From assembly GCA_048886685.1 (NCBI GenBank), contig JBHLKM010000001.1, forward strand, positions 32,001 through 96,000: DNA of 64,000 nt, in the 5' to 3' direction. Below are positions 33,645 through 51,061 of the stretch, one piece after another (position 1 is the first letter of the stretch; each line of letters begins with the position of its first letter). The position numbers and the translations under genes were made by a program. The notes beneath the pieces are model-generated. The model saw nothing but the letters and a program-made list of their open reading frames with translations, was not told the DNA's origin and searched no databases. The stretch is from Candidatus Hodarchaeota archaeon. GTDB lineage: Archaea > Asgardarchaeota > Lokiarchaeia > Sigyniarchaeales > SOKP01.

Positions 33645-36041
33645 TTGGTAAAAGAAATGAAGCGAGTAATAATAATTGGTGGAGTTGCTGGTGGTGCTTC
33701 AGCCGCAGCGCGTTTAAGGCGGTTAAAAGAAGATTTTGAAATTATAATGTTAGATAAAGGTCCATATGTTTCATTTGCAAATTGTGGGCTTCCATATTAT
33801 ATTGGAAATGTAATTAAAGATCGCGAATCCTTAGAATTGGTGACCCCTGAGAGATTTCTTGAAAGGTTTAAAATCGACGTTAGGGTAAACAACGAGGTAA
33901 TGTCAATAAATAGAGAAAAAAAGAAGATTGATGTCAGAGATTTAAAAACTAATGAAAATTATAAGCTTGAATATGATTATCTGATCCTGGCAACTGGTTC
34001 GAAACCAATTGTTCCACCTTTCAAAGGTCTTGAAGATGTCCCACATTTTACTGTGTGGACAATTCCAGATGCTGTAAAAATAAGGCAATATGTTGAAGAA
34101 TCACATATAAATAAAGCTGTTATCGTTGGAGGAGGATTTATAGGGTTAGAGATGGCTGAAAACTTAGTAGAGAAAGGTGTAAGAGTAAAAATAGTTGAAA
34201 TGTTAGATCAAGTTATGCCCCCTATTGATAAGGAAATGGCGCAGTTTATTCATCAAGAATTGATTTTAAATGGAGTATGTCTTGTTTTAGAAGATCCCGT
34301 CGACTCTTTTGGAAGAGCTGAGGGTGATAAACCTTTTGTCAAAACTAAAAGTGACAATATAATCGAGACAGATTTAATTATTTTGTCCATAGGGATTAGA
34401 CCTCAAAGCGAGCTAGCTAAAAATACTGGTTTAGAAATGTCAGAAAGAGGTTATGTGAAAGTCAATAAAAGAATGCAAACATCTGATCCAAATATATATG
34501 CTGTAGGAGATGTCGTTCAAGTGCAACATTTTCAAACTCAAAACCCGATATCAATGGCTTTGGCAGGTCCAGCAAATAAACAAGGAAGAATAGCAGCCGA
34601 CAACATTGCTGGAAGAAATTCAGAATATAAAGGTGTTTTAGGTGCTTCAGTTGTTAAGATTTTTGATATAACCGTTGCAGCAGTAGGTTTGACTGAAAAA
34701 CAATTGAAAAACCTAGATATCAAATATGATAAGATCTACATCCATCCAAACAATCATGCTGGGTATTATCCTGGAGCAACTCCAATGGCTTTCAAATTAA
34801 TATTTGAGGTTCCTTCTGGTAAAATTTTGGGTGCTCAAATAGTTGGAGGGCAAGGAAGTGAAAAAAGGATTGATGTGTTATCAACCATTATCAAATTGGG
34901 GGGAGACGTCTTTGATCTAGAAGAATTAGAATTAACTTATGCTCCACCGTATGGTTCAGCAAAAGATCCTGTAAATATGGCAGGATTTGTTGCAGCGAAT
35001 TATCTCAGAAAGGATATGCCTATTTGGCATTGGCATGATTTTAGTGATATAACAAATAATGGGGGATTATTATTGGATGTCAGAACCAAAGAAGAATTTG
35101 CCGCACGAACTATTGAAGGTTCGGTAAATATTCCAATCGAGGAGCTGAGAAATCGATTGGATGAGCTTGTGATAGATAAACCTATTTATGTATTCTGTGA
35201 AGTTGGATATAGGAGTTATCTGGCATTAAGAATTCTTTTACAGAGTGGTTTTAACGATGTATATGAATTAACAGGAGGTTTCAAAATTTTTGAGATGGCC
35301 AATGCTACTACAGAAGAAATTATGGCTGCGTGTGGTGGATCGGAAAATGTAATCGAAGAATTTGTTCATGAAAAAGCTTCTGAAAGCGAAGATTATGTAG
35401 AAATTGATGCGTGTGGACTTTCATGCCCAGGACCATTGAATGTGTTAATTAAAGGTCTTGAAGAATTGCCAGAAAATAAGAAATTAAAAGTATATGCTAC
35501 AGACCCCGGATTTAAATCTAGTGTTGAGGCGTATTCTAAATTAAATGAAGCTGTAAAATTGTTACATCTTGGAAAAGAAGAAGGAATGTTGGTTGCTATC
35601 TTAGAAAAGATTCAACCTATTGAAGTTATAACACCTGTTAAAAAGAAAACTAGAAAAGAATTACGTCCTCCCGATGCCCCTCCAGTATCAAATATCAGTG
35701 CTGATGAACTTTTTCAACGGATTGGTACCGAAGATGAACCAGCACTTATGATTGATGTTCGAACTCCCCAAGAATATCAAGGACCGAATGGTCATATTAA
35801 AAATACGAAATTAATTCCTCTAGGAGAGTTAATGAATAATCCAAATGCAATCAAGGACTATAAAAATGAGGAAATAATAGCAATCTGTCATTCTGGTTCT
35901 CGTTCTATGATGGCTGGTCAAATTCTAGCTCAAGCGGGATTTAAAGATATTAGAAATTTAACCGGGGGGATGATGACATGGCACAAGAAAGGTTATCCCG
36001 CAGAACTCGAAAAAAAAGGAATGACAGAGACTTATTATTAA
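33645..36041 (+). CDS. CoA-disulfide/persulfide reductase with rhodanese-TusA-rhodanese C-terminal domains
   Basis: GGVAGG, SFANCGLP and YAPP; rhodanese CEVGYRS; TusA CPGP; second rhodanese CHSGSRS. Confidence 0.9.
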   Translation: MVKEMKRVIIIGGVAGGASAAARLRRLKEDFEIIMLDKGPYVSFANCGLPYYIGNVIKDRESLELVTPERFLERFKIDVRVNNEVMSINREKKKIDVRDLKTNENYKLEYDYLILATGSKPIVPPFKGLEDVPHFTVWTIPDAVKIRQYVEESHINKAVIVGGGFIGLEMAENLVEKGVRVKIVEMLDQVMPPIDKEMAQFIHQELILNGVCLVLEDPVDSFGRAEGDKPFVKTKSDNIIETDLIILSIGIRPQSELAKNTGLEMSERGYVKVNKRMQTSDPNIYAVGDVVQVQHFQTQNPISMALAGPANKQGRIAADNIAGRNSEYKGVLGASVVKIFDITVAAVGLTEKQLKNLDIKYDKIYIHPNNHAGYYPGATPMAFKLIFEVPSGKILGAQIVGGQGSEKRIDVLSTIIKLGGDVFDLEELELTYAPPYGSAKDPVNMAGFVAANYLRKDMPIWHWHDFSDITNNGGLLLDVRTKEEFAARTIEGSVNIPIEELRNRLDELVIDKPIYVFCEVGYRSYLALRILLQSGFNDVYELTGGFKIFEMANATTEEIMAACGGSENVIEEFVHEKASESEDYVEIDACGLSCPGPLNVLIKGLEELPENKKLKVYATDPGFKSSVEAYSKLNEAVKLLHLGKEEGMLVAILEKIQPIEVITPVKKKTRKELRPPDAPPVSNISADELFQRIGTEDEPALMIDVRTPQEYQGPNGHIKNTKLIPLGELMNNPNAIKDYKNEEIIAICHSGSRSMMAGQILAQAGFKDIRNLTGGMMTWHKKGYPAELEKKGMTETYY

Positions 36042-36166: not shown

Positions 36167-36757
36167 ATGAAAGAAACTGCTAAGAAATTATTTACAGCAT
36201 ATGTTGGAGAAAGTCAAGCCCGAAATAGATATACCTTCTTTTCAAAAATCGCTAAGAAAGAAGGCTATGTGTTAGTATCTGAGGTTTTTCTTGAAACAGC
36301 TGACCAAGAAAGAGAACATGGTAGCTGGTTTTATAAGATGCTTCAAGGTTTTAAGAAAGAAGAAGATTTTGATGAAATGAAAGTATTCCCCGATGCAGAA
36401 TTTCCAACAACTCATGGAACTACAGTTGAAAATCTAAAATCCGCAATAGCCGGGGAAAATTTGGAATGGCAAACCCTATATCCTGATATAGCTGAAACTG
36501 CTGAAAAAGAAGGATATCCTGATATTTCTGTTAGAGTAGAAGCAATTATCAAAGCTGAGAGGCATCATTCTGAGAGATATGGAAAACTTTTAAAACTAAT
36601 TGGTGATGATGCATTCTTTAAACGAGGAGAGAAGGTGGTATGGGTGTGTATGGAATGCGGTTATGAAGTAGAAATGGATGAGATCCCGCCTGATTTTCGC
36701 TGTCCTTCCTGTGATCATCCGAGATCATATTATCGAAAGAAATGCGAGGATTTTTAA
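36167..36757 (+). CDS. rbr: Rubrerythrin
   Basis: GESQARNRY, EREH and ERHH; C-terminal CMECG...CPSC. Confidence 0.93.
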   Translation: MKETAKKLFTAYVGESQARNRYTFFSKIAKKEGYVLVSEVFLETADQEREHGSWFYKMLQGFKKEEDFDEMKVFPDAEFPTTHGTTVENLKSAIAGENLEWQTLYPDIAETAEKEGYPDISVRVEAIIKAERHHSERYGKLLKLIGDDAFFKRGEKVVWVCMECGYEVEMDEIPPDFRCPSCDHPRSYYRKKCEDF

Positions 36758-37931: not shown

Positions 37932-38336
37932 ATGGAACAACAACAAATTTTGGCAAACATTTGGAAGTGTAATATTTGTGGAAAAATAATTGAAGTCCTT
38001 AATCCAGCCGCTCCTGAAACCATTTGTTGCGGACAACCAATGGTTTTAATGGAAGAGCAGACCGCTGAATGGAAAGGTGAGAAACACGTTCCCAAGATTA
38101 CGATTGATGGTAATAAAGTTACTGTCGATGTAGGAATATCTATGGGGACTCCACATCCTATGACAGAAGAACACTACATCATGTGGATTGAGCTTATCTG
38201 TAAAGATAACTGTTATAAAAGGCAAATGTTATCCCCTGGTATGGAACCTAAAGCAACTTTTATGGTTGCGGATACAAGTGGGTTAAAAGCGTACGAATTC
38301 TGTAATTTGCACGGTCTGTGGTTGGGAACAGAATAA
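37932..38336 (+). CDS. dfx: Desulfoferrodoxin (2Fe superoxide reductase)
   Basis: CNICG...CCGQPM, EKHVP, HPMTEEHYI and CNLHGLW motifs. Confidence 0.95.
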   Translation: MEQQQILANIWKCNICGKIIEVLNPAAPETICCGQPMVLMEEQTAEWKGEKHVPKITIDGNKVTVDVGISMGTPHPMTEEHYIMWIELICKDNCYKRQMLSPGMEPKATFMVADTSGLKAYEFCNLHGLWLGTE

Positions 38337-42508: not shown

Positions 42509-42637
42509 AATAAATACACTTTCAAAGAAAATTTTAAAGTATAGTTCGGAAAATTATTTGCGATTTTTCAATATTTTGAAAATGATATAAAGAGAAAAAA
42601 TTAAAAAAAAGAAGAAAAATAATATAGGTTAAAGATA

Positions 42638-43816
42638 TTAACTTCTTTTTTTCCCCAAGAAGGGCATTGCATGTTCATATCTTTTCATTACAAATCTAGA
42701 AATAACAATCCTTTGAATCTCACTTGTCCCTTCATATATTTGGTATAATTTTGCATCTCTAAATAACTTTTCAACAGGATATGTTCTCAGATAGCCATAA
42801 CCTCCAAAGATTTGAATTGCTTCAGTTGTAACGTTCATAGCAACGTCTGACGCAAATGCTTTTGCGATTGCTGAGCTTAAATTATTATCCATACCTTGAT
42901 CGGCTTCCCAGGCTGCTTTATATGTTAAAAGTCGTGCAGCTTCAATATCTTTGTACATATTAGCTATTTTTTCCTGAATTACTTGGTAATTTGCGATTGG
43001 TCTGCCAAAAGTTTCTCTTTTATGTGCATAATCTATAGAATATTCCATTGCAGAGCGAGCACACCCTACAGCGAAAGCACCTATCGCTGGACGAGTGTGA
43101 GCAAATGTTTGCATAGCTAAAACAAAACCTCTTCCTGGTTTAGCAAGAACATTCTCCTTTGGGATTCTAACGTCCTTTAACCCTACAGAAACTGTATTAG
43201 ATGATCTTTGACCTAATTTAGGGATATGCTTACCTAATTTTACTCCTTCGCTTTTGGTATCTACTATAAAAGCAGCTATCCCTTTATGCTTTTTTTCAGG
43301 ATCAACTGTAGCAAAGACGGTGATATAATCAGCAACCCCACCGTTAGTAATCCAGAACTTATTTCCATTTAAAATATACTCATCTCCATCTTTTACTGCT
43401 CGACATTGCATTCCTGCTACATCAGAACCCATCCCAGGCTCGGAAGTTGCAAAAGCAATTAGTTTAAACTCATTGATTAGCTCCGATAAAATTCTTTTCT
43501 TCTGTTCTTCATTTCCACCAATAATAATTGGCTCTGTTCCAAGATTGTTATCAAAAACAGAGGTAGCAATCCCCGGACAAGCAGATGAGATTTCTTCGAC
43601 TACAATACAGGAATTTAATAAACCTAAACCTGGACCTCCATATTCTTTTGGGATTCCTAAATTTAATAATCCTTCTTCCCAGGCTTTTTTAATCACAGGC
43701 AGAGGAAACTCTTCAGATTCATCATATTTTCGAGCAACTGGTAAGACTTCATTTATAGCAAACTCTCTCGCTTTTTTTCGTAAAGCAATTTGTTCTTCTG
43801 AAAGTATAAAATCCAT
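42638..43816 (-). CDS. Acyl-CoA dehydrogenase
   Basis: SEPGMGSD, NGNKFWITNG, QIFGGYGY and QIYEGTSEIQR motifs. Confidence 0.95.
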   Translation of the reverse strand: MDFILSEEQIALRKKAREFAINEVLPVARKYDESEEFPLPVIKKAWEEGLLNLGIPKEYGGPGLGLLNSCIVVEEISSACPGIATSVFDNNLGTEPIIIGGNEEQKKRILSELINEFKLIAFATSEPGMGSDVAGMQCRAVKDGDEYILNGNKFWITNGGVADYITVFATVDPEKKHKGIAAFIVDTKSEGVKLGKHIPKLGQRSSNTVSVGLKDVRIPKENVLAKPGRGFVLAMQTFAHTRPAIGAFAVGCARSAMEYSIDYAHKRETFGRPIANYQVIQEKIANMYKDIEAARLLTYKAAWEADQGMDNNLSSAIAKAFASDVAMNVTTEAIQIFGGYGYLRTYPVEKLFRDAKLYQIYEGTSEIQRIVISRFVMKRYEHAMPFLGKKRS

Positions 43817-43831
43817 TTTCTTAATCCCCTT

Positions 43832-45028
43832 TTAACCCATTTTTTCAACTAATTTGTCAACTATTTCTTTAAAATCTAAATCCTCTGGTTTTGGTACATA
43901 TTGTATTTTTATCAACTCATCCATAACATCAATTTTAGTTTCTTTCATTATATTAGCAATCTCCTGGGCAGCTTGGCCTGACCATCCATAAGACCCAAAT
44001 GCTAATCCAACTTTATTCATAGGTTTTAAGCCTCTTTGATATGATAGATATTCTGCCACTGTGGGGTATAATCCATTGTTTAAGGTTGGACTCCCCACTA
44101 TAATTGCTTTTGCTTTCATAGCTTCTGTGATTACGTCTGAATAATCAGCAGTGGTTAATTTAAACCGCTTTACTGGTATGCCTCTATGACTAATTTCTTT
44201 TGCTAAGGCTTTCGCAATCTTTTCTGTACTACCCCACATTGTATCATAAACAATAAGAACACTCTTTTCATCAATTTCTCCTTTACACCATTTGGTATAT
44301 TTCTCTAAAATTTCTGGAATATGACTGCGCCAACATACACCATGTGAAGTGCACACTATATCAATCGGTAATGCTCCTACCTTAGGTAGTGCTTTAGCAA
44401 TTAACCCAGACAAATGTAATAATATATTAGCATAATATTTCTCAGCTTCTTGCATAACTTCACACAAGTCGTTTTCATCATCCCAGCGTTTTGTTGTTGC
44501 ATAATGTTGTCCAAATGCGTCATTTGAAAACAGCACATTCTTACCATTTTCATCCGTCATAAAAGATACCATTGAATCTGGCCAATGGATCATAGGGATT
44601 GGAACAAACGTGAATTTCTTACCATTCCCAATATCTAATGTATCTCCCTCTTTAACTCCTCTAATCTTATTAAAAACCTCATCTCCAAGCTCCTCATGAT
44701 AATGGGCTTTTAGAGCATCAACTCCTTTTTCGGAAGAAATGATTTCAGTATGAGGAAGATGTTTGACGATTAATGGAAACGAACCAGAGTGATCCATCTC
44801 AACGTGATTAACAATAAGATAATCAATTTCTTCTAAGGCACATACTTCTTTAATGTTCTTTAAAAAATAGTCGAAATGTGGCCGTTTAACTGTATCGATT
44901 AATACAGTCTTCTCTCCTTTAACGATATAAGCGTTATAGGATGAGCCCCGATGTGTAGAATACCCATGAAAATTCTTAATTTCAAAATCAATAAATCCAA
45001 CGAAGAATAAACCGTCTATTAGTTCCAT
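43832..45028 (-). CDS. fprA: Class A flavodiiron protein (O2/NO reductase)
   Basis: HVEMDHSG, HWPDSM, SNDAFGQH and SHG; flavodoxin domain TMWGST...GSPT...FGSYGW. Confidence 0.95.
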   Translation of the reverse strand: MELIDGLFFVGFIDFEIKNFHGYSTHRGSSYNAYIVKGEKTVLIDTVKRPHFDYFLKNIKEVCALEEIDYLIVNHVEMDHSGSFPLIVKHLPHTEIISSEKGVDALKAHYHEELGDEVFNKIRGVKEGDTLDIGNGKKFTFVPIPMIHWPDSMVSFMTDENGKNVLFSNDAFGQHYATTKRWDDENDLCEVMQEAEKYYANILLHLSGLIAKALPKVGALPIDIVCTSHGVCWRSHIPEILEKYTKWCKGEIDEKSVLIVYDTMWGSTEKIAKALAKEISHRGIPVKRFKLTTADYSDVITEAMKAKAIIVGSPTLNNGLYPTVAEYLSYQRGLKPMNKVGLAFGSYGWSGQAAQEIANIMKETKIDVMDELIKIQYVPKPEDLDFKEIVDKLVEKMG

Positions 45029-45267
45029 TTCACTTTCACCTTTTTGTAAAGTTTATAAGTTATTTCTTAATAACCTAGCGGTCATTAAAAATGTTGTATC
45101 TTTTGTTTATAAGTTCTAAACAATTGAGTAATAGTTAAGAGAAAAAAGTTTAGTGGTAGTAAACAATCCTAAAGAACTTTAATTTTGTAAAATTATAATT
45201 CCTACACCACTCTACATTTATAATAATTAAACGACATAACTAATATAGAAAGAGAAAAATTAAAAAC

Positions 45268-45432
45268 ATGGAATTTATCATCAATAAGTTTATTACATTA
45301 AAGCTTGAAAACGGAAAGACCAATATCTATGTAGGTGGTCAACTGTTTAATCACTGCAAATCAATAATTACACAAATGAATACTGAAGAAATTAAAGACT
45401 TTGATTTCCTTTTAACTCAATTGGAATTGTGA
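45268..45432 (+). pseudogene. Truncated N-terminus of a Lokiarchaeia-type protein family that is often LRR-associated
   Basis: MEFIINKFITLKLENGKTNIYVGGQLFNHCK... stops after 54 aa where an opposite-strand ORF begins. Confidence 0.5.
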
Positions 45433-45616
45433 TATTTAATAATATTTTCCATTTTTCGTATTCGCTCGTATTAGAAAAATCGGGATAATCGTCACCTCTA
45501 TATGTTATCTCTCCTGTGAGTGAATAAATTATCTCCGTACCTGCTTTAGTCGATATTATGACATAAATAAATGCTATAAACACCAATATTAATCCCATTA
45601 AGCACTTCTTTTTCAA
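45392..45616 (-). CDS. Short signal-peptide-bearing ORF, probably truncated
   Basis: KKK followed by a hydrophobic stretch; SD-like GAGGGCGTGA upstream. Confidence 0.45.
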   Translation of the reverse strand: MKKKCLMGLILVFIAFIYVIISTKAGTEIIYSLTGEITYRGDDYPDFSNTSEYEKWKILLNITIPIELKGNQSL

Positions 45617-45628
45617 TTTTCACGCCCT

Positions 45629-45721
45629 CTATTCCATTATTCTTATACCATCTTCATATTCATCTTCATATTGATCTACGGAAATCTTACGATAACGTTC
45701 TGGCGGTTGTCCATCTTTCAA
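45629..45721 (-). CDS. 30-aa hypothetical ORF
   Basis: TTG-started MKDGQPPERYRKISVDQYEDEYEDGIRIME, directly abutting the upstream stop codon. Confidence 0.3.
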   Translation of the reverse strand: MKDGQPPERYRKISVDQYEDEYEDGIRIME

Positions 45722-46030
45722 TTAAATTTCATTAGGACTATAAAAACGATTCCTATCAAAAAGATCTGTCATTTTATTATAATCCCAAACCTTAACTCTG
45801 TTACCTTCATCGTCCACGAGATTGTTTTTCATTACTAAAAATATAAAATCTCTTGTAATTGGTATCGAAGAGCCAGGTGTGTAAAAGAGATTAGACAAAG
45901 CGACAATATAGCGAAGAGTCTCCATAGCTTCTGTCCTTTTAGATAAATCGATAGTAAATTTATAAGCGCCGCTTATATAGACCTCATCGTTGTAAACCAC
46001 ACTTCTCAAGGTCAAGTGGTAAAAATACAT
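45722..46030 (-). CDS. Hypothetical protein or C-terminal gene fragment
   Basis: 102-aa ORF with no motif recognised. Confidence 0.45.
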   Translation of the reverse strand: MYFYHLTLRSVVYNDEVYISGAYKFTIDLSKRTEAMETLRYIVALSNLFYTPGSSIPITRDFIFLVMKNNLVDDEGNRVKVWDYNKMTDLFDRNRFYSPNEI

Positions 46031-46089
46031 AAGAAAACAGCTATTTACGTTCAGTAAAATGTATATTACTTACATAGCTCCTCTCTTCT

Positions 46090-46551
46090 TTAAATCTCAA
46101 TAATAATAGATGCGTTATTACATCCAATTTTCCAATAGCCTGAAAAAGGGATGAAAATTGTGATATTATAATATATAAAAGCCATAACTTGTGCACAAAG
46201 GCCTTTCTTACCCCATATCCAGATATTAATTTCTTTATTATATAAATTGTACTGAACAACTTCTAAATATGGAAGACCACAATCTGACCATACGGGCCAA
46301 CTTACCCCTAAAATATTGATACCTAGTTTAGGGGATCCTACTATTTCCATAGAACTTATATTCTTAAGTTTTAAATCATCAGGATCAATATCGTATAGAT
46401 TTACATATGGATTTACATAAAACAAAGAGGGAGAAAATGCAATCCCAAATAGTATAGATCCACACAATATAGATCCCAGAACAATATAAGTAATTAATTT
46501 TGGCTTGGTTAATTTTATATCTGTTAATGTTGAAAGATGCATTATCTTCAC
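46090..46551 (-). CDS. Membrane-anchored hypothetical protein
   Basis: One N-terminal TM segment and a beta-rich domain with Cys residues. Confidence 0.6.
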   Translation of the reverse strand: MKIMHLSTLTDIKLTKPKLITYIVLGSILCGSILFGIAFSPSLFYVNPYVNLYDIDPDDLKLKNISSMEIVGSPKLGINILGVSWPVWSDCGLPYLEVVQYNLYNKEINIWIWGKKGLCAQVMAFIYYNITIFIPFSGYWKIGCNNASIIIEI

Positions 46552-46750
46552 TACTAGTTATCTTTTTTATGGCTAAAAAAAGTTATTCTGTTCAGAGTTT
46601 TGAACAGGGTAATATAAGAAATAATATTTTTCTTTAAAAAGATAGAGTTCCTTTAGTATTCATTATGACCATAACGAATTCTCAAAACAATTCTCGAAAA
46701 TCCCCTGTCCATGTCATTGTAGACAACAGAGAACAGAAGCTTAATCCTCT

Positions 46751-46931
46751 TACTTTAAAAATGAGTCAATAGCATATTATTCGCGCGGATTCCATGCATT
46801 TGGTCACATCAGTGAGGATGAGCTTTACTGGATGATTCACAGAATTTCATACCGAATGTCCATCGTGGTTTACAGAGAATTTTGGGGATCGAGTAAAATT
46901 ATTAGAAAAGGGGGAAAATATTTCCTTATAA
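46751..46931 (+). pseudogene. Frameshifted C-terminal remnant of an RNase J-like MBL/beta-CASP gene
   Basis: One frame gives GFHAFGHISEDELYWMI (HxSGH-like); a second frame continues HTECPSWFTENFGDRVKLLEKGENISL*. Confidence 0.5.
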
Positions 46932-47246
46932 AGATCTTTAGTATATCTTTTGTACCACTCTGACCTTGGGAATCGGAATAGTATTACGCATGGTGAAAAG
47001 GATGCATTATCGGATATAGAAATTGTGTGGCTATGTTCCGGCACCATCGCATCATATTTTAAGTATCTTGTCCATAGATTCTATAAGTAAAATAAAATCA
47101 TAAATTTATTAAAGAAAAAAATAAGAATCTCAATAAAATTCAAGTTAAAAACTTATATTCTATCGATTATAAAATTTTTCAGAATTTAGATGTTAAATAA
47201 AAATCCAGAAAGAGAATTAACTTAAATTCTAAATAAGTGAATAACC

Positions 47247-47534
47247 TTAATTGTTACTGTCTCTTATCTCTTCAACTATTTTGACTACAGGACATAAGTT
47301 AAGTTTGTGACATAAAGGAGTTGCCGCTGACCCACTGGCGCAAAGACAAACGAATTCTGTTAAAAATAGTCTATCTAACTCGTCAGCAAGCTTATCTAAA
47401 TTGCCTTTTATCTCTTTAAGAGCATTGGGCAAATATATAGTTAAGGTTCCAAATATTGAAACAGCAGCTCTTCTTCTTGGAAAAAGATAATGAGTGCCAG
47501 TAGAAAATCGAAAATTGTTAATAGAAGCTGCCAT
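47247..47534 (-). CDS. Small Cys-containing hypothetical protein
   Basis: 95-aa ATG ORF with CLC...C...CP. Confidence 0.5.
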   Translation of the reverse strand: MAASINNFRFSTGTHYLFPRRRAAVSIFGTLTIYLPNALKEIKGNLDKLADELDRLFLTEFVCLCASGSAATPLCHKLNLCPVVKIVEEIRDSNN

Positions 47535-47757
47535 TTCTTAAATAACAAATATTTTACATTATTTGTTGTGATAATATTAGATTTGTTATTAAAACCCATT
47601 CGATTCCCATTTTTTTGTGATCATATCACAATCTTTTTTATAACAAATCAAGAAAGAATAAGTAATAATAAGATGGTATTGGTAAGTTTTGTCTAAATAA
47701 GACTTATAATTTATATATCAAGTAAGTAAAAAAAAATTAGTTGGGATTAGGATAATT

Positions 47758-47895
47758 TTATTCAATTTTTTCAAACATATCTTTTCCTACACCACAAACA
47801 GGACAAGTCCAATCGTCTGGTAAATCCTCAAAGCTAGTACCTTCAGCTTCTTCATCATAAACATATCCGCAAGCTTGACATTCCCATTTTCCCAA
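47758..47895 (-). CDS. rub: Rubredoxin (45 aa, missed by the track)
   Basis: TTG-started [45 protein letters not shown]. Confidence 0.95.
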
Positions 47896-48039
47896 ATTTA
47901 ACACATCCTTTTATTATTAACTCAAGGTATTTGATTTTATGGATTGAAATTGAATGTATATTAAAAATATTAATTTAATATTTTATAAATGGTACTAAAA
48001 AGAGATTCAGTTTGAGATGATTCTAAATAAAATATAGAT

Positions 48040-49533: not shown

Positions 49534-49686
49534 TCAATCCTTTTTGGGTATCTCTTTTTCAATAAAGAAATTTTTTGAGGAGCGACATTTAGGGCATCTC
49601 CAGTCATTTCCAACTTCATTAAATGGGATCGTCTGCTCCTCGTCAATATATACATAATTACATCTTTTACATCTATGGATGTTCAT
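49534..49686 (-). CDS. Divergent rubredoxin-like protein (50 aa, missed by the track)
   Basis: MNIHRCKRCNYVYIDEEQTIPFNEVGNDWRCPKCRSSKNFFIEKEIPKKD. Confidence 0.85.
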   Translation of the reverse strand: MNIHRCKRCNYVYIDEEQTIPFNEVGNDWRCPKCRSSKNFFIEKEIPKKD

Positions 49687-49714: not shown

Positions 49715-51061
49715 TCATTCTTTTTGCTTAAAATTCTCTTTAGGACCATTACAATTAGGGCATTTAAAATCATCAGGAAGATCTTTAAAGAGGATATCCA
49801 TCACAGCTTCATCATACTCTTTACCACAATTATTACATATATAAATATATAACTCTAACAATTTCCTGAGCTCATTTTTATCCACGTCTTGCTCCATTTT
49901 ATTGTAAACGTAGGATATTGCCTTAGTATCTCCAAATAATATAGCTCCTTTAAGTCTACTTTCCTTTAACACCAATTTTTGAAAACAGCAATTTTTTTTA
50001 TCTGCCTTTCTTAATATCTCCCACCCTCCGGGAGCTTCTTCTTTTAAAGGGTCGATAATTCCTATCGAGGTTAATTCTATGCCCATAATTTTAAGTGTAT
50101 TCTTTGGGGTCGTGCCTTTGTATTCTACCTTCTTCAATCCAAGGGTAGATGCTGCTACGATCTTCGATTGTTCCATACATGCTGGAATAATGCCCCAAAT
50201 CTGATTGTTATATTCTATACAGTCTCCTACAGCAAAAATATCTTTTTCACTTGTTTCAAGAAATTCATTTACAATTATACCCTTGTTTGTCGTTAAATTA
50301 GCATCTTTGGCTAATTCAATTGTTGGTCTAATCCCTGCTTGAATTAATACGATATCTGCTTCTATCTCTTCTCCTCCTTTTAATCTAATACCTGTCACTA
50401 ATCCATTTCCTAGTATTTCTTCTGTAGTTGCATCTAAAACAACCTTAATTCCTCTTTTTTCGATTTCTTCTTTTAACATACCTCCACATTCCTCATCTAA
50501 CTGTCTTGGTAATAACTGTGGAAAAAATTCGACCACTGTTGTATCCAAACCGCTATTTTTAATTTGGTTTGCTAATTCTAGACCAAGTAATCCACCGCCA
50601 ATAACGATTGCTTTCTTAGTGTTTTCTTTTCTGATATAATATTTTATCTCTAAACCATCATCAATACTTCGTAATGTGAATAATCCTTTCTTTTCATCCT
50701 TATATTTGGTAGCATTTTTAATAGGTGGAATATTGGGAGTACTTCCTAATGCTAATACAAGTTTATCATAGGAAATTGGATCTTTGCCTTCTATTTCTAT
50801 TGTTTTATTTTTTGGGTTAATTCTTTTTACTTTTGTATTGAGAGTTAGTTTGATTTGCTTGGTTTTATACCAATCTTCCTTAAATACAATTAAGTCATCT
50901 ATGGTTACTTTTTCTGAGATTAATTCAGGCAAATTAACTCTTGTATAATAAGGATATTTTTCTTGTGTAAGTATCTCGATTTCTGCCTCTTCATTTAGAA
51001 ATCTTATATTTTGAGCAGTAAAAGTACCAGAAACATTATTTCCAATTATAACAATCTTCAT
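49715..51061 (-). CDS. NAD(P)H:rubredoxin oxidoreductase-like flavoprotein with a C-terminal rubredoxin domain
   Basis: LALGS, GGGLLGLE and FAVGDC; C-terminal CNNCG...LPDDFKCPNC. Confidence 0.9.
   Translation of the reverse strand: MKIVIIGNNVSGTFTAQNIRFLNEEAEIEILTQEKYPYYTRVNLPELISEKVTIDDLIVFKEDWYKTKQIKLTLNTKVKRINPKNKTIEIEGKDPISYDKLVLALGSTPNIPPIKNATKYKDEKKGLFTLRSIDDGLEIKYYIRKENTKKAIVIGGGLLGLELANQIKNSGLDTTVVEFFPQLLPRQLDEECGGMLKEEIEKRGIKVVLDATTEEILGNGLVTGIRLKGGEEIEADIVLIQAGIRPTIELAKDANLTTNKGIIVNEFLETSEKDIFAVGDCIEYNNQIWGIIPACMEQSKIVAASTLGLKKVEYKGTTPKNTLKIMGIELTSIGIIDPLKEEAPGGWEILRKADKKNCCFQKLVLKESRLKGAILFGDTKAISYVYNKMEQDVDKNELRKLLELYIYICNNCGKEYDEAVMDILFKDLPDDFKCPNCNGPKENFKQKE

Follow-up and report, generated by a model that had tools for sequence, protein, structure and literature searches.

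Results

In Lokiarchaeia (Promethearchaeia), the gene of a class A flavodiiron protein (FDP), fprA, and the gene of an MCAD-like acyl-CoA dehydrogenase (ACAD) form a real and conserved pair, beyond what chance would give. We consider it fairly probable that the pair belongs to an oxygen sink that does not depend on ETF, in which electrons would pass from acyl-CoA to ACAD, on to rubredoxin, and from there to the FDP as well as to rubrerythrin and superoxide reductase (SOR).

Genomic organization of the fprA-ACAD region

The pair lies in a Lokiarchaeial genome, in a stretch of 64,000 nucleotides (C1:32001-96000; hereafter, the window) whose relevant features are collected in Table 1. Its close homologues come from records named Promethearchaeota or Promethearchaeia. 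The initial annotation had placed fprA 15 bp before ACAD on the same strand, with rubredoxins 3–5 kb upstream and neither ETF nor other beta-oxidation genes nearby, and this layout was borne out. The two genes are co-oriented with a 15-nt gap; two free rubredoxins (Rd1 and Rd2) and a third one fused to a reductase are located 2.7–4.7 kb upstream on the same strand; and ETF, enoyl-CoA hydratase, 3-hydroxyacyl-CoA dehydrogenase and thiolase had no matches within the window, while genes for all of them are plentiful outside it. The three EtfAB pairs of the genome, which account for all three of its PF00766 matches, are on other contigs. The initial annotation missed the NAD(P)H:rubredoxin oxidoreductase-like protein of the cluster (NorW-like in NCBIfam, below the cut-off). 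This protein is predicted to be a conventional electron donor available to the FDP, so that ACAD is not its sole possible donor.

Table 1. Features of the fprA-ACAD region, in positions of the window
Feature	Position	Strand	Description and basis
Rubrerythrin	36167..36757	+	Pfam; possible alternative sink (H2O2)
SOR, desulfoferrodoxin type	37932..38336	+	Pfam; possible alternative sink
T-rich tract 3' of ACAD stop	42592..42630	-	sequence
ACAD, MCAD-like acyl-CoA dehydrogenase	42638..43816	-	392 aa; all ACAD domains (Pfam)
fprA-ACAD intergenic gap	43817..43831	-	15 nt
fprA, class A FDP	43832..45028	-	398 aa; ODP/metallo-beta-lactamase and flavodoxin domains (Pfam)
GGTGA, putative ribosome site upstream of fprA	45040-45036	-	DNA alignment, 16 upstream regions
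Conserved TATA-like element upstream of fprA	45112-45106	-	DNA alignment, 16 upstream regions
Rd1, free rubredoxin	47758..47904	-	48 aa; Pfam
Rd2, second, divergent free rubredoxin	49534..49686	-	50 aa; PF00301, E 3e-6
NAD(P)H:rubredoxin oxidoreductase-like, C-terminal rubredoxin domain	49715..51061	-	448 aa; Pfam Pyr_redox_2, Rubredoxin_C, Rubredoxin

On inspection of its sequence, the gap between the two genes showed a G-rich stretch resembling an SD site and was free of T-tracts; in close relatives the gap measures 4–18 bp. The T-rich tract that follows the ACAD stop is likely an archaeal terminator, and the conserved stretch upstream of fprA (45036..45112) would provide the promoter and the ribosome site. 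In relatives without fprA (L048, L053), the TATA-like element is immediately 5' of ACAD, which suggests that fprA and ACAD are carried on a single transcript. A sigma-70 promoter scan of the region gave a chance-level result, the sigma-70 model being ill-suited to archaea.

Rubredoxin feeds FDPs, rubrerythrin and SOR alike. The three rubredoxins of the cluster are the only PF00301 matches in the genome, and rubrerythrin and SOR are encoded 4–6 kb from the pair, on the side opposite to the rubredoxins. Rd1 is likely the electron carrier. It shares 53% identity with the rubredoxin that is fused in locus L126, and in most close relatives it is located ~155 bp before fprA; in the source genome a 2.6-kb insert separates the two. 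The insert (45190-47750) contains short ORFs with no significant Pfam matches. Conserved in the same cluster is also a 798-aa CoA-disulfide-reductase-like protein with rhodanese-type domains (33645-36041, + strand). It carries what we take to be a TusA-like Cys-Pro motif and is likely a persulfide/CoA reductase.

The flavodiiron protein

The FDP is composed of the core ODP and Flavodoxin_1 domains only, and its best PDB match is Moorella FprA (1YCF, E 7e-100). Its iron ligands H75, E77, D79, H80, H148, D170 and H229 are invariant across 43 orthologues. A metallo-beta-lactamase and a flavodoxin domain with nothing added, together with the complete diiron ligand set, place it in class A, and a genome-wide search gave this single match, making fprA the sole FDP gene of the genome. 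FDPs reduce O2 to water. Among the second-sphere residues, which do not fix selectivity, Lys48 matches Lys53 of the O2-selective Entamoeba enzyme and Trp265 matches Moorella FprA. Since exchanging these positions in the E. coli FDP left its selectivity unaltered (PMC13133992), O2 versus NO is not readable from the sequence.

Conservation of the pair

We counted class-level loci with enough flank in which an FDP is located <300 bp upstream of ACAD, binned by identity. The adjacency, whose conservation the initial annotation had left to be checked, is kept in 42/45 loci at an identity of at least 88%, in 22/37 at 73–88% and in 12/22 at 49–62%; the genomes are kin and rich in one genus, and these counts are thus not independent trials. 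The partners have also been reassorted. The FDPs beside the ACAD family belong to both branches that the deepest division of the FDP tree separates: in L085, L121 and L149 an ACAD with 86% identity accompanies an FDP with only 32%, and in L117-L119 an ACAD with 55% accompanies an FDP with 74–75%. The pairing is therefore not plain co-descent.

The adjacency has its limits. For a further Lokiarchaeial FDP clade, no ACAD was found within the 1.5-kb flanks, and in other Asgard classes the ACAD orthologue was directly behind an FDP in 0/19 cases. There, one family has it 2–4 kb away from an FDP and rubredoxin, a second has it next to rubredoxin and rubrerythrin, and in a third it follows HdrA-like genes; the remaining orthologues have no recognisable neighbours. 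In L185-L192, from one family of another Asgard class, the unfused orthologue follows two iron-sulfur proteins of 720–770 aa, one of them HdrA-like with an MvhD/FlpD domain; these may offer this ACAD clade another electron route that dispenses with ETF. Matches labelled EtfA beside the orthologues of another Asgard family turned out to be ferredoxin domains of HdrA-like proteins, and were discarded.

Several loci depart from the usual arrangement. In L030, L107, L130-L135 and L194, which represent further Lokiarchaeial families and one Asgard class besides Lokiarchaeia, the reductase and the FDP are separated by genes for a ferredoxin-thioredoxin reductase beta chain and a glutaredoxin-like protein. 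One genome carries two fprA-ACAD pairs, one rubredoxin-fused (L126, G011:C87) and one unfused (L002, G011:C11); this may be a binning artefact, as the contamination of the bin is 7%. In L105 and L152, where no redox genes are adjacent, a frameshift near residue 100 interrupts the ACAD orthologue, reflecting either decay or an assembly error.

Active site and ETF contact of ACAD

The best PDB matches of ACAD are the Thermus enzyme 1UKW and mammalian MCAD (E 3e-122 and 3e-116; 412 and 392 bits), while clostridial Bcd scores 316 bits or less. Like MCAD (mammalian; Thermus 1UKW), it has the catalytic Glu, Trp and Tyr: its N, M and C domains are present, Glu362 occupies the position of MCAD Glu376, and the flavin-shielding Trp155 is kept. 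It differs from MCAD in its location outside any beta-oxidation cluster, in its ETF contact and in its pocket, where A84, F88 and D89 replace Q95, E99 and A100. F88 and D89 recur in 119–120 of 120 rubredoxin-fused homologues. With such a pocket, the substrate specificity may differ from that of MCAD. The best NCBIfam score, to acryloyl-CoA reductase, was 383, far below the cut-off of 640. Pfam detected neither a fused EtfA (PF00766) nor a rubredoxin domain in the 392 residues.

ETF alpha-Arg249 forms a salt bridge with MCAD Glu212 or, alternatively (LCAD), with a Glu twelve residues further (PMC10925408). At these two positions ACAD has Ile198 and Ser210, neither of which is acidic. As a sequence proxy for ETF use, distinct from a binding assay, we recorded an acidic residue at either position. 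It was present in 104/113 diverse ACADs and in 5/5 Bcd-type or ETF-linked ACADs, including the ETF-adjacent paralogue of the source genome on contig C10, compared with 0/80 family members from the loci and 0/120 fused homologues. The family has an invariant Ile-Pro-Lys at this site instead. The residue is likewise missing from four further ACADs of the source genome, and from orthologues in other Asgard classes that stand beside HdrA-like genes or beside no redox genes. Its loss in the family is one inherited event. Because that loss extends to loci without redox neighbours, it backs the ETF independence of the clade, not the link to the FDP itself. The hydrophobic docking pocket for the ETF-beta loop is partly retained: L12, E23, L50 and V72 are compatible with docking, whereas at positions 49 and 62 some family members have charged or polar residues. 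Structure prediction was uninformative either way, with an ACAD-FDP complex score of 0.00 and, for a fused orthologue, an unusable AlphaFold model (pLDDT 40) computed from one sequence.

Rubredoxin fusions and the history of ACAD

Relatives of ACAD carry rubredoxin as part of the same protein, in two forms. In the classic-fusion clade, which belongs to the same family and is 74–81% identical to the source ACAD, a PF00301 domain is fused in frame at the C-terminus. In a second clade, 52–61% identical and found in other Lokiarchaeia and in Desulfobacterota including Desulfosarcina alkanivorans, the domain is the short rubrerythrin-type PF21349; it was present, with all four Cys kept, in all of the best 120 homologues of a deltaproteobacterial query. 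An IQ-TREE phylogeny of 57 rows, in which all outgroups are unfused, placed the unfused source clade (98/92) as sister to the classic-fusion clade (97/98), with the unfused L123 branching outside both and the PF21349 clade (100/99) next. A single clade of fused forms was rejected (AU p 0.006), so the source ACAD was more likely never fused than split from a fusion, and the unfused form probably came first. The simplest history is one in which rubredoxin was gained twice, in agreement with the two types of domain; the tree also accommodates one gain with a domain swap and two losses.

Loss of a fused rubredoxin from the source ACAD had been suggested by its nesting, weakly supported, in a quick FastTree run, and was dropped when the careful tree disagreed. 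We also rejected Rd1 as a split-off piece of a fusion, as fused loci retain a free Rd1 of their own. A search for ACAD-FDP fusions among proteins of 687–2000 aa gave 0/86 matches, which is weak evidence.

The flanks of 15 bacterial fused loci contained no FDP (0/15), so the constant partner of ACAD is rubredoxin and not the FDP; some of these loci are near rubrerythrin and a Fur-family regulator. The fusions with a rubrerythrin-type rubredoxin form a large family of ~440–450 aa (L100-L116, L212-L216, P0087-P0206) that occurs in Desulfobacterota and further bacteria and in most cases has no FDP next to it. Bacterial fusions nest among Asgard sequences, which, in an Asgard-heavy sampling, hints at transfer. 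In L216 (6292-9158), one fusion is in tandem with a divergent paralogue of 471 aa (P0221) near a ferritin-like gene, and the two may constitute a heteromeric form.

Comparison with known systems

The initial annotation had described a Fusobacterium enzyme fusing ACAD, flavodiiron and rubredoxin parts, and had viewed the present pair as its possible split equivalent. The description of that enzyme is wrong in detail. As a review (PMC12288474) relates from Bystrom and Wolthers 2024, the butyryl-CoA:oxygen oxidoreductase (BOOR) of Fusobacterium nucleatum consists of BCR (FN1424), in which Bcd, the C-terminal part of EtfA and rubredoxin are joined, and of an FDP encoded by a separate gene (FN1423). 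According to the same review, the two form a stable 4+4 complex that uses butyryl-CoA to reduce O2 to water and does not reduce NO, BOOR also occurs in gut Firmicutes, and it runs in the forward direction and is the sole characterised ACAD-rubredoxin-FDP unit. We saw the three-part fusion directly in locus L206, and a second BCR-FDP locus is L209. The latter is part of NZ_CP084075.1 (L205, L209), a 2.1-Mb Fusobacterium vincentii record that is filed as a plasmid and looks chromosomal.

The source pair resembles BOOR in being a two-gene unit of an ACAD and a class A FDP, adjacent and co-oriented, in an anaerobic host, with rubredoxin as the likely link and no full ETF. It differs in that its ACAD is MCAD-like rather than Bcd-like and has no EtfA C-terminal domain; its rubredoxin is free, directly fused in relatives; the order is FDP then ACAD, reversed relative to L206 and L209; and the system is archaeal and a predicted one. 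Its FDP is of another clade, separated from those of L206 and L209 by the deepest split of the FDP tree. Its ACAD is 45% identical to the F. vincentii BCR, yet the BCRs fall beside Bcd in the tree, and a clade uniting them with the source ACAD family was rejected (AU p 1.4e-8, with two BCR rows only). BCR is, in the tree, a third ACAD-rubredoxin fusion, unrelated to the other two. On comparative grounds, the conserved and reassorted adjacency, the two fusions in sister clades and the lost ETF residue strongly favour the idea of an equivalent as to function; as to ancestry, the idea of a split enzyme finds no support, since ACAD is MCAD-like, the FDP is from another clade and the unfused state is probably older. 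Lacking the EtfA fusion, the rubredoxin fusion, the Bcd/BCR lineage and an orthologous FDP, the source pair is a convergent variant and not a member of BOOR; we infer that it works like BOOR and arose independently.

All components of the NAD(P)H:rubredoxin oxidoreductase-rubredoxin-FDP chains (Desulfovibrio gigas ROO, Moorella FprA/Hrb, E. coli NorVW) are present in the cluster. Compared with these chains, and with rubrerythrin and SOR alongside, ACAD is added here as a probable second point of electron entry.

Proposed electron route and its alternatives

In the proposed route, fprA and ACAD would be co-transcribed parts of an oxygen-defence unit. ACAD, whose fold and catalytic Glu are intact, would oxidise a short- or medium-chain acyl-CoA, and rubredoxin rather than ETF would take the electrons of its reduced flavin, one in each of two steps; this acceptor is proposed on account of the relatives with a fused rubredoxin and of the missing ETF contact. 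In the source genome this rubredoxin would be the free one encoded upstream. It would pass the electrons to the FDP for the reduction of O2 to water (or possibly of NO), and probably also to rubrerythrin and SOR, while the NAD(P)H reductase would supply the chain alongside. The potential of butyryl-CoA/crotonyl-CoA is -10 mV and that of O2/water is +820 mV (PMC12288474); with so weak a reductant, it would be O2 that draws the chain forward, and NAD(P)H would be spared. In the presence of O2, beta-oxidation could then get past its most difficult step. The many beta-oxidation genes of the genome, in which haem-copper oxidase had no match, support an O2 sink fed by acyl-CoA. Against it, the source ACAD carries no rubredoxin, and the NAD(P)H reductase is already an obvious donor for the free rubredoxins.

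Could ACAD instead be an ordinary ETF-dependent enzyme that is merely co-regulated with oxidative-stress genes, for instance to clear damaged or excess acyl-CoA, with EtfAB supplied from elsewhere? The three EtfAB pairs of the genome, the MCAD-type enzymes as closest solved relatives, the docking-compatible pocket residues and the lack of an extra domain all fit. We nonetheless hold this unlikely: sister clades acquired rubredoxin in two separate fusions, the acidic salt-bridge residue that the paralogue on C10 has is missing, and ETF is never adjacent (ETF-beta was within 5 kb of ACAD in 0/48 loci). Slightly less likely again is a mainly reverse flow, in which NAD(P)H, through the reductase and rubredoxin, would let ACAD reduce enoyl-CoA as an electron sink or remove a toxic one such as acryloyl-CoA, the FDP just sharing the rubredoxin pool. 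Rubredoxin and acyl-CoA potentials are close, the top NCBIfam score, though far below the cut-off, points to acryloyl-CoA reductase, and in loci where fprA is missing (L048, L077, L083, L087, L095) ACAD stays with rubredoxin and the reductase. However, the most persistent and tightest neighbour of ACAD is the O2/NO sink, the FDP being within 5 kb in 8/10 loci of the distant bin and the reductase in 4/10, and BOOR runs forward (PMC12288474).

The same loci without fprA speak against a stable complex in which ACAD would hand electrons directly to the FMN of the FDP with no need of free rubredoxin. A coupling as tight as 15 bp is typical of complex subunits, BOOR provides a precedent (PMC12288474), and the unfused state persists beside the FDP in several lineages; but one ACAD clade pairs with FDPs just 32% identical to each other, which is hardly compatible with a stable interface, and the repeated fusion of rubredoxin implies that a carrier is needed. 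We regard direct transfer as quite improbable. Inherited synteny without any shared function is more improbable still. In close relatives GmhB, an ArsB-like gene and an unknown ORF are also syntenic (20/24, 16/24 and 11/24), and the sampling is rich in one genus. With divergence these neighbours vanish, GmhB, ArsB and MFS genes being found in 0/6 loci of the most distant bin (a small control), while the FDP stays; partners are replaced in place, and rubredoxin has been fused to ACAD.

Discussion

The route from acyl-CoA through rubredoxin to the FDP leads to a broader proposal, which we advance only tentatively. The source ACAD may represent a clade, widespread but so far undescribed, of MCAD-like acyl-CoA:rubredoxin oxidoreductases that need neither ETF nor an ETF domain and are distributed over Lokiarchaeia, other Asgard classes and Desulfobacterota. 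Lokiarchaeia might couple beta-oxidation to O2 through the FDP, with traces of O2 driving the one step of fatty-acid oxidation for which a syntrophic partner is otherwise required. If so, "strictly anaerobic" Asgard archaea would have a soluble, oxidase-free way to profit from O2, and acyl-CoA-fuelled oxygen removal would have evolved at least twice from different parts. In the literature searched, with subscription journals mostly outside it, no paper on a Lokiarchaeial ACAD-FDP system was found, and an ACAD that uses rubredoxin directly without an ETF domain would be new for the enzyme family. Sulfate reducers such as Desulfosarcina alkanivorans hold a large, unstudied family of ACAD-rubredoxin fusions. 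For Lokiarchaeia, which have no terminal oxidases, the four-protein system would offer a concrete test of how these archaea cope with oxygen and may even use it, an issue of current interest for the environment in which eukaryotes originated.
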